Positions 17,586-56,412 of a stretch of 64,000 bases of DNA are shown in pieces. The translations under genes were made by a program, and so were the position numbers. Positions within the stretch are counted from its first letter, which is position 1. Each line of letters starts with the position of its first letter. The notes under the pieces are model-generated. The model had not been told where the DNA came from. It ran no database searches and saw only the letters and a list, made by a program, of their open reading frames with translations. The stretch lies in assembly GCF_057098645.1 (NCBI RefSeq), contig NZ_CM169472.1; one strand, given 5' to 3'.

Positions 17586-17945
<360 letters not shown>

Positions 17946-52192: not shown

Positions 52193-52263
52193 TTTTGCGT
52201 GACAGCCAGCGCCTCTGGCCCCTATAGTGAAGTAGATGTTCAACTACCAGACAGGGCCAGTTT

Positions 52264-52548
52264 ATGCTTCAAAGTAATGAGTACTTTTCCGGCAAAGTGA
52301 AATCGATCGGCTTTTCCAGCAGCAGCACTGGTCGCGCCAGCGTGGGTGTTATGGTTGAAGGCGAATACACCTTCAGCACCGCTGAGCCGGAAGAAATGAC
52401 GGTAATCAGTGGCGCGCTGAATGTGTTACTGCCTGACGCGACCGACTGGCAAGTGTATGAAGCCGGTTCGGTGTTTAATGTTCCCGGTCACAGTGAGTTT
52501 CATCTGCAAGTTGCCGAACCCACCTCTTATCTGTGCCGCTATCTGTAA
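52264..52548 (+). CDS. ppnP: Pyrimidine/purine nucleoside phosphorylase PpnP (YaiE), 94 aa
   Basis: [94 protein letters not shown]. Confidence 0.94.
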
Positions 52549-52691
52549 TTCCTCGCCTTCCCCTTGAACGGGAGGGCATTTTTCTGAAATATCCTCTCTT
52601 TAACCCATAATAATATTTCCTTTGCTGCGATTTTTTCAATTTCCGATATATTCATAATTCATCAAGGTTGATATAAATATCATTGAAGATT

Positions 52692-54971
52692 ATGAATAGA
52701 ATTAATATATTGGTCATCTGTATGGTCGTATTTTTTATGACTGGCAATGCATGTGCCACAGAGTGGATCAGTAGCGAGGACCTTATCACCTCTGACTTTC
52801 ATCTTATGACGGCAGATGAGCGCAACGTGGTTAAAGCGGCAACCGACGATAGTATGGAAGCTGCTTATATGCTAAAAGATAATATCCGCTGGTATTATCA
52901 TAATGGTGACCTATCATTACCCGCTAACTTCAGCAATCAAAATAAACTGGTGGTGAACGGTAATTTAACGATTTCCGGCGATTATGATGATTATCTGTCA
53001 GGTAATGGTCATCTGATTGTATTAGGTAATGTTATTGTCGATAACTTTATTAATCATGATTTCGCGTATGTCAAAGGACAGATGACAGCGAAAGGTTTAG
53101 TTTATGCTGATTACAATGATCATAACTTTGAAGTGATGAAGGGAATTAGTGCGCGAGGCATTATTGTTTCCGATAAAGCAACGCAATTTGAAGTCATTAA
53201 AGCTGAATTTTATATCAATGAAGATGGAAGTGGTGAAGGATATAACTGGGATGAGAATATTCAAAAAGCCTATTCACTGGTGACTGCCGATCTTTATGAT
53301 CACACTGAAATCGAAACCGATAACATTTCCAATGCGTATCCTGACTATGATAGCGTCGCAGACAACATCGTTCAGGGTTTACCGCTTTTTCGAGATAAAG
53401 CCGCTCCTGAAATTAATGAGAAATTAAAATGGATTGAAACGGGGAAACTCGATAATTTCCCAGCGAATAAAATAAAGCATCAAGATCCACTGGTGGTACG
53501 TTTTTTGACTCATACAGAGAGTTTATCACCCGCCGTTATGCTGCAACTGTTACAGCACCCCGATGACCAGACGCGTGAATCGATGGCGCAGTCCTGGCCC
53601 GCTCAACAGATGCATTTGCTTACCGATGAATTAATTAAAGATGAGGCTGTTGCCAGAGGGCTGGTTAAAAACAGTAATATTTCCGCCGATGTGAATAAAA
53701 AATTAATGTCTGTACCCGTCGAGAGCGTACAGCTGGAGCAGGCCAGACAGGATAATCTTTCTCCAGATATTGTTGCGTCGTTAAGTCATAGCCCCTTTCT
53801 CAGTGTACGCAAGACATTACTCAGCCATTACGATTACGCCTGGCTGGTTCCGACTGCAGTGGCCGATGAGTTGATAAATAACGAAGACCCGGAGTTACGT
53901 GAAAGAATTACCGGAGCAGATTTAACCGCACAACAAGCAGTGATGTTGAGTAAAGATAAATCACTGAAAGTTCGTGAAGCATTAGCCCGGACGCTTACTG
54001 AATTAAAAATTACCCAACTGTCAGCAACCCTGCGTACAGAGGATATTGAACGTATCGCAGAACAAATGTATCTGGATAATAAAGAAAATAAAAATATCGT
54101 AAAAGCGTTATTGATAGCGTTGCCGGAGATGCGTCAACTGTCTCTGGCAAAAGAAGATGTGCACAATTTGCGCGAAGGTGCGCGTTATCTGACATCGAAG
54201 GACGTGATTAGTTATCTATTGACTCAGCATGATGTTCCCACCGTCTGGGATGAGCTGGCACGCGATAAATTATTGCCGCTGGAATATAAGAAACAGTTAT
54301 GGCAACGCACATTAAATTTAATGATGAGCAAACGGCAAGAAGATCAAGAGCAAGCCTACGAAGTACAGCTGGCGCTGATTGATAATGGTGTTGTTGACGA
54401 AGAGATGTTAAATAATGCCATTGATTTACTGGTTGATTTACCCGCTGAATACCGCTATCGAATGCGTAACCAATTATTTGATAATAAAGATTTACCTTCC
54501 GGAATTATCAACAAACTCGATCAACAGTATCGCTTCAACTCTGACTGGGCGCTGGCTGTTGTCAGTATGAAAAATAGCACCCGTAGGCAAAGTGAAAGAG
54601 GATTACACCGCTGGAACCATGAGGATAGCGATATTTTTGCGGAACTGGCGACGATAAAAGATAAATCAGATGATGAATGGTGGCGTGCATTGCTGCAAAG
54701 TCGCAATGATCATTTGCGCCAAACGGCATTACGCAACGCACATACCCCGGCGTCGTTGTTAACGACATTGACTGAGTCTCAGGATCGGTCGCTGGCTATT
54801 AATAATCCACAGCTGGCTGCCGATGTGAAAACGGTGTGGCTAAAAGAGGATCCATCATTGCTTTTATTTGTCGATCAACCCGATCTTTCGCAGTTACGGG
54901 ATTTAGTGAAAACCGGGGCAACGCGGAAAATTCGCAGTGAAGCGCGTCACCGGCTTGAGGAAAAACAATGA
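52692..54971 (+). CDS. Secreted repeat protein of unknown function, about 759 aa (signal peptide, Gly/Asn/Asp-rich N-terminal domain, long array of helical Leu/Arg/Glu-rich repeats)
   Basis: Signal peptide MNRINILVICMVVFFMTGNACA; recurring segments such as SPAVMLQLLQHPDDQTRESMAQ, LSVRKTLLSHYD, SLKVREALARTLTEL, HLRQTALRNAHTPASLLTTL; AT-rich codon usage; the ORF track start at 52683 is a TTG, the first ATG is at 52692. Confidence 0.7.
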   Translation: MNRINILVICMVVFFMTGNACATEWISSEDLITSDFHLMTADERNVVKAATDDSMEAAYMLKDNIRWYYHNGDLSLPANFSNQNKLVVNGNLTISGDYDDYLSGNGHLIVLGNVIVDNFINHDFAYVKGQMTAKGLVYADYNDHNFEVMKGISARGIIVSDKATQFEVIKAEFYINEDGSGEGYNWDENIQKAYSLVTADLYDHTEIETDNISNAYPDYDSVADNIVQGLPLFRDKAAPEINEKLKWIETGKLDNFPANKIKHQDPLVVRFLTHTESLSPAVMLQLLQHPDDQTRESMAQSWPAQQMHLLTDELIKDEAVARGLVKNSNISADVNKKLMSVPVESVQLEQARQDNLSPDIVASLSHSPFLSVRKTLLSHYDYAWLVPTAVADELINNEDPELRERITGADLTAQQAVMLSKDKSLKVREALARTLTELKITQLSATLRTEDIERIAEQMYLDNKENKNIVKALLIALPEMRQLSLAKEDVHNLREGARYLTSKDVISYLLTQHDVPTVWDELARDKLLPLEYKKQLWQRTLNLMMSKRQEDQEQAYEVQLALIDNGVVDEEMLNNAIDLLVDLPAEYRYRMRNQLFDNKDLPSGIINKLDQQYRFNSDWALAVVSMKNSTRRQSERGLHRWNHEDSDIFAELATIKDKSDDEWWRALLQSRNDHLRQTALRNAHTPASLLTTLTESQDRSLAINNPQLAADVKTVWLKEDPSLLLFVDQPDLSQLRDLVKTGATRKIRSEARHRLEEKQ

Positions 54972-55423
54972 CACAACGCCCCTGGAGCAAGTTACAGCGG
55001 GAGAACTATGACTTACTGACGCCAACGATCAACCTGCACATTCACTGTACCCGTTATCCCATGCGCAGCCAAAATGGTGGAAGCACCGATTTACCGCGTT
55101 ATTGGATCACGTTGGATAAAAACGTGATCTGGGATTACCCGAAAGACTTTATTGCAGGTAACGGTGGAGTGCGTAATTTTCACGGTGAAACTTGCTGGTA
55201 TCCTTACCTGACGGATATTTGTCCAATTTCTGATTTATTGCGTGAATATATTGACACCCCAAAAGCGGAGCTGTTAACAAAACAATTTACCAGCGATAAA
55301 TGGGGGTTAGTGAATATTCTGCGTGCTGCTGACAGGCGAATAGGGATGAGACGATTCGATCAGTTACGGCGTAAAACGCATAATATTGCTGCGCTAAAAA
55401 TTATTGCCCGCCGTAGCGAATAA
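54968..55423 (+). CDS. Hypothetical 151-aa protein translationally coupled to the upstream repeat protein (possibly the ykiA position)
   Basis: MTQRPWSKLQRENYDLLTPTINLHIHCTRYPMRSQNGG...; start ATG overlaps the upstream stop (caATGAca); RBS gagga; contains several Cys/His residues; no signal peptide. Confidence 0.65.
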   Translation: MTQRPWSKLQRENYDLLTPTINLHIHCTRYPMRSQNGGSTDLPRYWITLDKNVIWDYPKDFIAGNGGVRNFHGETCWYPYLTDICPISDLLREYIDTPKAELLTKQFTSDKWGLVNILRAADRRIGMRRFDQLRRKTHNIAALKIIARRSE

Positions 55424-55448
55424 TTATATGCCTGGTGTGGCTTCGTAC

Positions 55449-55482
55449 GCCGGATAAGACGCGGCAGGCGTCGCATCCGGCA
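55449..55482. repeat. REP element between the 151-aa ORF and rdgC
   Basis: gccggataagacgcggcaggcgtcgcatccggca. Confidence 0.7.
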
Positions 55483-55500
55483 TTAAAGGAAAATCAGCAA

Positions 55501-56412
55501 TTAACGTTGTGCTTCACCACCTAATCCTTCAATCAGGTTTTGAATTAACGCTGCCAGTTCACCAGTCATCAGGATGAAATCGGCATCAAAACGCTGGGCG
55601 AAATCTTCACGGTCGATATCTTCGTTTTGATCGCGCAGCTCGTCGCAGAACTTCAGACGCTTGAGCGAACCATCGTCGCACATCACAAACTGAATGCGCT
55701 GCTGCCAGTCGAGCGCCAGTTTAGTCACCACTTTTCCGGCTTCAATGTGATTGGTGATCTCTTCGCTGGTCAGATCTTGTTTCTTCGCGCGGATCACTCC
55801 GCCATCTTCCAGCAACGATTTCAGCTCGGCTTCATCAAGCAGCTGGAAGCCCTGTGCCGCACTACCGGAACGTACCCATTCGGTCAGCGTCAGTTCAATC
55901 GGGTTTTCCATGCTCAATGGTACAACCGGTAACGACCCCAGGCTTTTACGCAGCAGTGCCAGCGTATCTTCCGCTTTTTTGGCACTGGCGCAGTCCACCA
56001 TAATCAAACCATTAACCGTGTCGATCCACATCATTGTCTGGCTAAAACGGCTGAAAGCACGCGGCAGCAGAGAGTGCAGCACTTCGTCTTTCAGCGAATC
56101 TTTTTCGGTTTTCTTCAGCTTACGCGCCTGTTCCGCTTCCAGTTTGGCGATTTTCGCTTCCAGCGCCTGTTTAATCACCGGAGACGGGAGGATTTTTTCT
56201 TCTTTGCGTGCGCAGATAACAATTTGACCATTGGCAACGTGCGTTAACGCATCGCTGTGCGATCCCATCGGAGGAACCCAGCCCATCTTCGCCATGTCCT
56301 GGCTGCCGCATGGGGTAAATGCCATCGAGGCTAGCTGTTTTTCCATCTCTTCTGCACGCAGCGAAATCTCGCGGCTAAGACGGTAAACCATTAAATTTTT
56401 GAACCACAGCAT
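55501..56412 (-). CDS. rdgC: Recombination-associated protein RdgC, 303 aa
   Basis: [48 protein letters not shown]...; the ORF track extends to 56484. Confidence 0.95.

Follow-up and report, generated by a model that had tools for sequence, protein, structure and literature searches.

Between ppnP and the convergent gene rdgC, some Escherichia coli genomes carry two AT-rich genes at a site where K-12 has merely the short ykiA, and this raises the question of whether the two are a recent addition that works as a pair, or something older that many strains have lost. The DNA examined here is a 64 kb stretch of E. coli contig NZ_CM169472.1 (referred to as the window), which in this region is 99.9% identical to the O145 strain RM9872. 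An earlier note on the same DNA, made from the sequence alone, suggested either an accessory acquisition or a lineage-specific retention, and, among several possible roles, an effector with a cognate partner. We consider it rather probable that the locus is an old Escherichia transcription unit that has been lost piecemeal, and that it encodes an exported scaffold and an immunity-type protein that function independently of each other.

The first gene (gene 1, 52692..54971, plus strand) encodes a 759-residue solenoid protein, predicted to be exported, which by reading frame, homology and AlphaFold (AF2) model is the full-length form of the K-12 'ykiA' and a paralog of YdbD; the frame is open from 52683, and the ATG at 52692 is the RefSeq start that gives 759 residues. 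The second (gene 2, 54968..55423, plus strand) encodes a 151-residue protein of the SF0329 family, as identified from its reading frame and its NCBIfam and Pfam matches. At the junction between them (54957..54971, plus strand), a GAGGA Shine-Dalgarno sequence within the end of gene 1 (54957–54961) precedes the gene 2 ATG at 54968, and the gene 1 TGA occupies 54969–54971, such that stop and start overlap in ATGA; a 4-nt overlap is likewise annotated in alleles 93–98% identical. Because the genes share an orientation, overlap, and have no terminator between them, they are likely to be co-transcribed and translationally coupled in E. coli, and both open reading frames, their overlap and the proposed coupling are as the earlier note described them. 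RefSeq already gives both genes family names, gene 1 as a 'DUF2773 domain-containing protein'. The gene pair consists of intact, already named members of known but uncharacterised families (YdbD/DUF2773 and SF0329) and is no new kind of system.

Comparison of intact and shortened alleles indicates how the locus has evolved. We surveyed 5426 complete E. coli genomes: 5424 have the flanks, 446 have interior sequence of gene 1 (443 of them nearly full length, with at least 80% coverage), and 920 have interior sequence of gene 2. Gene 1 occurs mainly in O157:H7, O145 and their relatives, together with scattered other strains whose alleles are 93–99% identical. Alignment across E. coli genomes, proposed earlier as a way of defining the indel boundaries, places two gaps in K-12-type genomes, at 52691..54629 and 55000..55361. 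By BLAST and by reading of the junctions, K-12-type loci are collinear with the window to 52690 (98.7% identity, including the shared promoter region 52549–52690), continue with a CTCCAG filler, and resume at 54630, the first deletion having taken away the gene 1 start codon together with roughly the first 646 residues. What survives as ykiA corresponds to approximately residues 646–759 and is flagged in RefSeq as a DUF2773 fragment lacking its N-terminus (a pseudogene). The second jump, from about 55000 to 55362, lies between the short repeats AGTTACAGCG and AGTTACGGCG and joins SF0329 residues 1–11 in frame to residues 136–151, yielding the 27-residue YkiD (MTQRPWSKLQR-KTHNIAALKIIARRSE). YkiD has been detected as a protein in K-12, so the downstream start is used there (PMC6001520). 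The statement in the earlier note that K-12 has just a short ykiA at this site is correct, and that gene, accompanied by the 27-residue ykiD, is the C-terminal relic of gene 1.

The deletions are nested. The junction GAAGAT-CTCCAG is common to the K-12-type and C5-type loci and the later deletions differ: strain C5 shares the first junction but has also lost the ykiA relic, and its SF0329 gene is present but frameshifted, while Escherichia sp. MOD1-EC7003 has the first deletion together with an intact SF0329 gene and is the expected intermediate. Since the short alleles hold relics of both genes and a common junction, the long form is taken to be the parent. Escherichia albertii has the same synteny, with gene 1 deleted between different end points such that ATGAATAG and the last ~30 codons are left, followed by an intact SF0329 gene (85% identity). 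In Escherichia sp. E4930 gene 1 is intact (74% identity) and it is SF0329 that has suffered an internal in-frame deletion of its own. Between E. coli and E. albertii the synonymous divergence (dS) of SF0329 is 0.91, as compared to 0.82, 0.49 and 0.52 for the flanking aroM/ppnP/rdgC genes, and the ratio of nonsynonymous to synonymous divergence (dN/dS) is 0.15–0.28 for gene 1 between intact alleles and 0.08–0.19 for gene 2 in informative pairs (0.076 against E. albertii). Because the same site is occupied in other Escherichia, dS is like that of the flanks, and the deletion junctions are nested, the locus is, on these comparisons, ancestral and not acquired; it would predate the split of these Escherichia species and have been inherited with its flanks. 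Of the two origins offered earlier, retention thus stands, whereas acquisition does not fit the E. albertii synteny, the flank-like dS or the nested junctions. At least five separate deletions can be recognized from the alignments as having eroded the locus, with purifying selection evident where it is intact.

Some further details of this decay can be noted. The E4930 deletion leaves a 21-codon open reading frame (MRLRRKTHNIAALKIIIRRSE) similar to YkiD, and the core of SF0329 has thus been removed twice (in K-12-type genomes and in E4930), with the start and the basic C-terminal tail left in frame both times. Additional independent inactivations are seen among strains GDSC2227PM, CUWW06 and E200086, two of which have an IS1 insertion in gene 1; in one of the three, both genes are annotated as frameshifted, possibly through sequencing error.

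The same comparisons bear on whether the two genes belong together. All four states are found within Escherichia (both genes, gene 1 only, gene 2 only, and neither), with gene 1 intact in the absence of SF0329 in E4930 and SF0329 intact in the absence of gene 1 in E. albertii. No gene 1 relatives were found by tblastn in the SF0329 loci of other genera, and eight relatives of gene 1 examined outside the locus, YdbD included, have no conserved neighbor, none of the eight (0/8) lying next to an SF0329 gene. As judged by these distributions genes 1 and 2 are not an obligate pair and are neighbors in Escherichia only. The effector/partner model of the earlier note is thus unsupported, because each gene survives alone under selection, the two families adjoin in no other genus, and one product is predicted to be exported and the other not.

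Gene 1 begins with a putative Sec-type signal peptide (residues 1–22, 52692..52757, plus strand), recognized from a hydropathy heuristic and a detached helix in the AF2 model. The N-terminus reads MNRINILVICMVVFFMTGNACA and then TE, with a 10-residue Kyte-Doolittle maximum of 3.5; cleavage is predicted at ACA/TE, a call that is heuristic, and residues 2–16 are modelled as a separate helix of low confidence. By hydropathy 31 of the 49 full-length homologs score as signal peptide-like, as do two more close relatives once their start is moved upstream, although approximately ten appear from their sequences to be truly cytoplasmic. The product is thus probably exported, in agreement with the signal peptide read earlier.

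The AF2 model of gene 1 (pLDDT 91.5, pTM 0.81) shows a bactofilin-like beta-solenoid at residues 68–176 (52893..53219, plus strand; ~16 short strands, pLDDT mostly >90), a linker, and an alpha-solenoid of the leucine-rich-repeat-variant (LRV) type at residues 241–758 (53412..54965, plus strand), the latter recognized from the model and the family profile. The 'Gly/Asn/Asp-rich domain of about 200 aa' of the earlier note is, more exactly, a beta-solenoid of about 110 residues and then the linker. Conservation within the family is highest in this beta-solenoid (G72, G90, G96, Y98, D100, V110 and G112), and the conserved family columns are chiefly solenoid glycine, leucine and tyrosine residues, plus R234 and D265. 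The last 81 residues of the alpha-solenoid are the Pfam domain DUF2773 (PF10971), matched at residues 679–759 over the full length of the model with an E-value of 2.1e-40. The gene 1 sequence alone has no match to Pfam LRV, and one to HEAT only at E 8.5; a 39-sequence family profile matches Protein Data Bank (PDB) entry 1LRV at E 6.4e-13, Pfam LRV/LRV_2 match 4–6 of the 39 members at E≤0.001 and 14 at E≤0.1, and HEAT_2 also matches members, in accord with the proposal that the Leu/Arg/Glu-rich segments are LRV- or HEAT-like repeats. A Foldseek search of the PDB with the whole model returned generic HEAT/ARM solenoids alone (TM-scores 0.13–0.30). There is no match to Bactofilin PF04519 at E≤10, and no enzymatic or toxin domain in Pfam, NCBIfam or PADLOC, with only insignificant PHROGs matches, as expected from the earlier failure to see a catalytic motif.

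A word-index search returned only six matches to gene 1, as if it were an orphan confined to Escherichia, an impression overturned by an exhaustive HMMER search that recovered 171 family representatives, 35 of them below 1e-30 and many of them proteins of 750–800 residues at 24–35% identity. K-12 itself has a full-length paralog of gene 1 in YdbD (28% identity over 740 columns, residues 36–757 aligned with 41–768, BLASTP E 4e-80, 95% of the length), contrary to the implied absence of a K-12 counterpart. Three cytoplasmic proteins of 1000–1200 residues have the same N-terminal domain and C-terminal TPR repeats. In one single case, a 1012-residue cytoplasmic relative (N-terminal beta-solenoid, LRV and TPR tail) is encoded directly upstream of an 889-residue protein with a Tle1-like lipase domain of type VI secretion system (T6SS) effectors.

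The predicted fold suggests that the gene 1 product may act in the periplasm as a scaffold that binds an envelope protein or polymer. A more elaborate version can be imagined in which the YdbD/YkiA family is an exported, cytoskeleton-like periplasmic element whose beta-solenoid polymerises or caps a polymer, with the LRV region as a docking arm and expression under envelope-stress control. This is compatible with the strong conservation of the beta-solenoid, the signal peptides of most members, and the fusion of the head to TPR arrays in cytoplasmic cousins, but we regard it as a long shot; if true, sigma-E would provide the control for YdbD and BglJ-RcsB that for gene 1.

Gene 2 matches the NCBIfam model NF049912 over residues 6–148 (87.5 bits, cutoff 60) and Pfam PF25753 with an E-value of 1.4e-19, and lacks a signal peptide. 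A word-index search identified 522 SF0329 homologs, with 50–65% identity across phyla, in Enterobacterales, Photobacterium, Campylobacter, Leptospira, Bacteroidales, Clostridia and others; no solved structural relative is available for the family. SF0329 was not found in the phage collection and is nearly absent from plasmids, which led us to set aside an origin as a phage, anti-defence or plasmid gene; nor does it match the PADLOC defence models. Among the loci compared we found no SF0329 partner that is conserved across phyla, and the neighbors that recur in Campylobacter and Ruminococcus, considered as candidate partners, reflect genome relatedness. Literature searches for SF0329, DUF2773, DUF4304 and DUF4240 returned nothing relevant.

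The neighborhoods of SF0329 genes nonetheless provide clues to function. A Pfam census of 79 neighbors of 24 diverse SF0329 loci includes DUF4240 (three), DUF6985 (two), SUKH_6, Imm51, DUF4304, DUF4261 and DUF4272. One and the same 160-residue Bacteroidales SF0329 protein recurs in 810 indexed blocks of the assembly collection, which suggests very recent spread among gut Bacteroidales, and in all four of the places that we read its gene lies among co-directional SMI1_KNR4/SUKH_6, Imm17, Imm21, Imm44 and DUF4261 genes. A full-length tyrosine recombinase lies upstream of it in three places, and in the fourth a short integrase-domain gene is seen at the contig edge. The array GC contents are 0.372, 0.363 and 0.491 in the three places with a full-length recombinase and 0.384 in the fourth, with the recombinases at 0.50–0.54 in the places whose arrays are at 0.36–0.38. 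The rAID-1 orphan-immunity clusters of Bacteroidales are recombinase-led, and are defined by criteria that include a cluster GC of ≤41% (Ross et al., bioRxiv 10.1101/471110). Because SF0329 cassettes lie in arrays that match the rAID-1 architecture, an immunity-type function of SF0329 is probable by analogy. One of the Bacteroidales arrays is beside conjugation genes (relaxase, TraG, MobC). In Leminorella grimontii an SF0329 gene follows a run of small co-directional genes, including one for a WGR+DUF4240 protein, in an islet that resembles the Bacteroidales polyimmunity arrays. Two Foldseek matches at ~30% identity raised the thought that SF0329 is a diverged DUF4304, which we do not claim, as hhalign against a DUF4304-like-looking Campylobacter neighbor gave a probability of <1%.

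Upstream of gene 1 lies an AT-rich promoter and 5′ leader (52585..52691, plus strand), recognized from its GC content and its near-identity with the K-12-type locus, where it is the ykiA promoter region. BglJ-RcsB activates the ykiA promoter in K-12, and the promoter region is shared with the window; by analogy, gene 1 may be made only when this silent, AT-rich promoter is switched on. We can thus envisage a scheme, in which export, scaffold function, regulation in this strain and immunity function are all inferred, whereby activation of the ykiA promoter by BglJ-RcsB would lead to synthesis and Sec-dependent export of gene 1, whose non-catalytic bactofilin-like beta-solenoid and ~500-residue LRV alpha-solenoid would act as a periplasmic binding scaffold. 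Gene 2 would provide a small cytoplasmic SF0329 protein that neutralises an incoming interbacterial toxin, members of this family being found in other bacteria either singly or as one cassette of a recombinase-led orphan-immunity array. The two genes would be co-transcribed and translationally coupled, yet each would work, and be lost, independently.

Other explanations can be weighed against this scheme. It is easy to see why the unit could be taken for an accessory islet that the O157/O145 lineage alone gained by horizontal transfer, since the GC content of the window is lowest here and the 446 carriers are for the most part O157:H7, O145 or related strains. The GC content is 0.425 in gene 1 (0.389 in its N-terminal 240 codons), 0.452 in gene 2 and 0.336 in the spacer 52549–52691, as compared to 0.519 for the window, so the AT-richness reported earlier is genuine; just 0.6% of 2280-bp windows across the 64 kb are as low in GC as gene 1, with the minimum at 52601. 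An islet of this kind is nevertheless very improbable given the same site and gene order in E. albertii and two other Escherichia lineages, a dS equal to that of neighboring housekeeping genes, and short alleles that hold both relics and the common junction; there are also no integrase, tRNA or direct-repeat boundaries within 52200–55700. An ancient transfer into the Escherichia ancestor is possible and would explain the low GC, which may record a much older transfer and not a recent one. The idea that a periplasmic repeat protein and a small cytoplasmic protein form a cognate pair (effector and partner, sensor and transducer, or toxin and immunity) gains from the retention of the ATGA overlap and internal Shine-Dalgarno sequence among alleles with as much as 7% divergence, from a similar TAATG junction in the E. 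albertii relic, and from the divergence of gene 1, gene 2 and the flanks in step. We think it improbable, as all four presence/absence states occur within Escherichia, E4930 has an intact gene 1 with no SF0329, SF0329 is under strong purifying selection without gene 1 in E. albertii, and neither the eight outside relatives nor the tblastn search of other genera brings the families together; moreover, predicted export of one product only makes direct contact unlikely, and gene 1 lacks a toxin or enzymatic domain.

Two further proposals concern what the proteins do. SF0329 could have no part in immunity and instead be a small conserved enzyme, or a factor that binds nucleic acids or ribosomes, which happens to be carried on mobile DNA. 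Its 50–65% identity between Proteobacteria, Bacillota, Bacteroidota and Spirochaetes would suit such a role, as would the invariant His26, Asp56, Asp110, Asp122 and Arg124 (with Cys27 nearly so), the strongly basic C-terminal helix, and a gene GC that partly follows host GC (r 0.47). We rate this proposal as unlikely but credible, noting on the other side the repeated presence of SF0329 in arrays of recognised immunity families (behind a full-length tyrosine recombinase in three of four), its absence from phage genomes and from the PADLOC models, and the lack of any known catalytic fold. Alternatively, both genes could be defensive, encoding periplasmic and cytoplasmic orphan immunity proteins in a BglJ-RcsB operon that meets toxins of either compartment; here one can point to SF0329 among immunity genes, to the listing of rhsA and rhsB, tied to intercellular competition, as putative targets in the BglJ-RcsB paper, and to the distant cytoplasmic relative directly upstream of the Tle1-like T6SS lipase gene. 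The Tle1-like neighbor is a single case, however, the other relatives of gene 1, YdbD included, lie amid housekeeping genes, there is no toxin gene near the locus, and at 759 residues gene 1 is far larger than known periplasmic immunity proteins; this proposal is accordingly hard to credit. The interpretation that we favor, an old unit encoding an exported scaffold and an independent immunity-type protein, faces difficulties of its own. For SF0329, there are 28 invariant columns in a 32-sequence alignment from several phyla, conservation far above that of typical immunity proteins; many Clostridia and Campylobacter loci have the gene amid ordinary genes; no recognisable toxin gene adjoins SF0329 among the loci examined; and the DUF4304 link is weak, hhalign having found nothing. 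For gene 1, the proposed scaffold function is argued from the fold and the absence of catalytic features, and the data even on YdbD are indirect. BglJ-RcsB control was measured in K-12, whose locus is the relic and not the intact gene, and ykiA is not among the H-NS tests of that paper.

The unit is well delimited on both sides. On the left, ppnP ends at 52548 and is followed by its intrinsic terminator (52555..52584, plus strand), identified by a terminator scan and RNA folding as a GC-rich hairpin at 52555–52577 and a T-run thereafter (fold −15 kcal/mol, z −2.2). On the right, between gene 2 and rdgC, is a repetitive extragenic palindromic (REP) element at ~55442..55483, recognized from BLAST copies near araJ and with its core GCCGGATAAGACGC at 55449; the hairpin after ppnP and the REP element before rdgC had both been named as bounds in the earlier note. 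The REP core has 13 matches in the window versus 0.06 expected. Seven of these lie in tandem at 17608–17922, in alternating orientation and at ~100-bp spacing, with the look of a bacterial interspersed mosaic element (BIME)-type array.

These comparisons explain two small K-12 genes. The gene ykiA, a BglJ-RcsB target 'of unknown function', is accounted for as a relic of a 759-residue exported YdbD paralog, and ykiD, which encodes a small protein of 27 residues, as a relic of an SF0329 gene; work in K-12 on the BglJ-RcsB regulon and on small proteins has therefore concerned remnants. What the promoter controls is best asked in strains such as O157:H7 or O145. Pfam DUF2773, with its 81 positions, covers no more than the end of an LRV solenoid, a region contained in the ykiA remnant, and full-length or domain-wise models would serve better. 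For SF0329, the immunity-type cassettes in rAID-like arrays of Bacteroidales provide a first testable functional lead.

How the locus compares with known systems can now be stated. In K-12, ykiA and ykiD occupy the same locus and have the same promoter region, but are deletion relics, whereas the window carries the intact parents. Closest to gene 1 at full length is YdbD (b1407; 'DUF2773 domain-containing bactofilin' in RefSeq), which has 770 residues as against 759, a signal peptide-like N-terminus, a beta- and then an alpha-solenoid, and a DUF2773 C-terminus; its Pfam matches are DUF2773 and a weak one to Bactofilin (E 0.048, below significance). It differs in its setting, pdxI-ydbD-ynbABCD with no SF0329 gene downstream, and in its retention, at ≥80% coverage in 3834 of the 5426 genomes as compared to 443 for gene 1. 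YdbD is induced 3.9-fold on sigma-E activation and has been described as 'induced by methylglyoxal' (PMC2731931), and it scored as important for fitness despite ~6 copies per cell (PMC5053530). The ydbD gene is directly upstream of ynbABCD (as seen for ydbD-ynbA-ynbB in E. coli KE47), and the ynbABCD promoter is another BglJ-RcsB target; judged by gene position, both paralogs are physically tied to the BglJ-RcsB regulon. The ydbD locus came to light through a tblastn search, in three PLSDB 'plasmids' (NZ_OL790696.1, NZ_CP141089.1 and NZ_CP134663.1), which at 4.8–4.9 Mb are evidently chromosomes.

More distant parallels concern the parts. The Azotobacter vinelandii LRV protein (1LRV) has the repeat type of the gene 1 alpha-solenoid; it is a cytoplasmic protein with an Fe-S domain. 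At 244 residues it is a third of the length of gene 1, which in contrast is predicted to be exported and is headed by a beta-solenoid. Bactofilins (PF04519) are cytoplasmic polymer-formers, and the compact, ~110-residue beta-solenoid of short strands in gene 1, predicted with high confidence, resembles them; the gene 1 domain is, however, behind a putative signal peptide and fused to a long alpha-solenoid, and does not match PF04519. The likeness of the Bacteroidales SF0329 loci to rAID-1 clusters extends to the upstream recombinase in three of four, the SUKH and Imm neighbors, and an array GC of ≤41% in three of four, whereas the E. coli locus has neither recombinase nor array, and its SF0329 gene stands alone behind an unrelated protein that is predicted to be exported.

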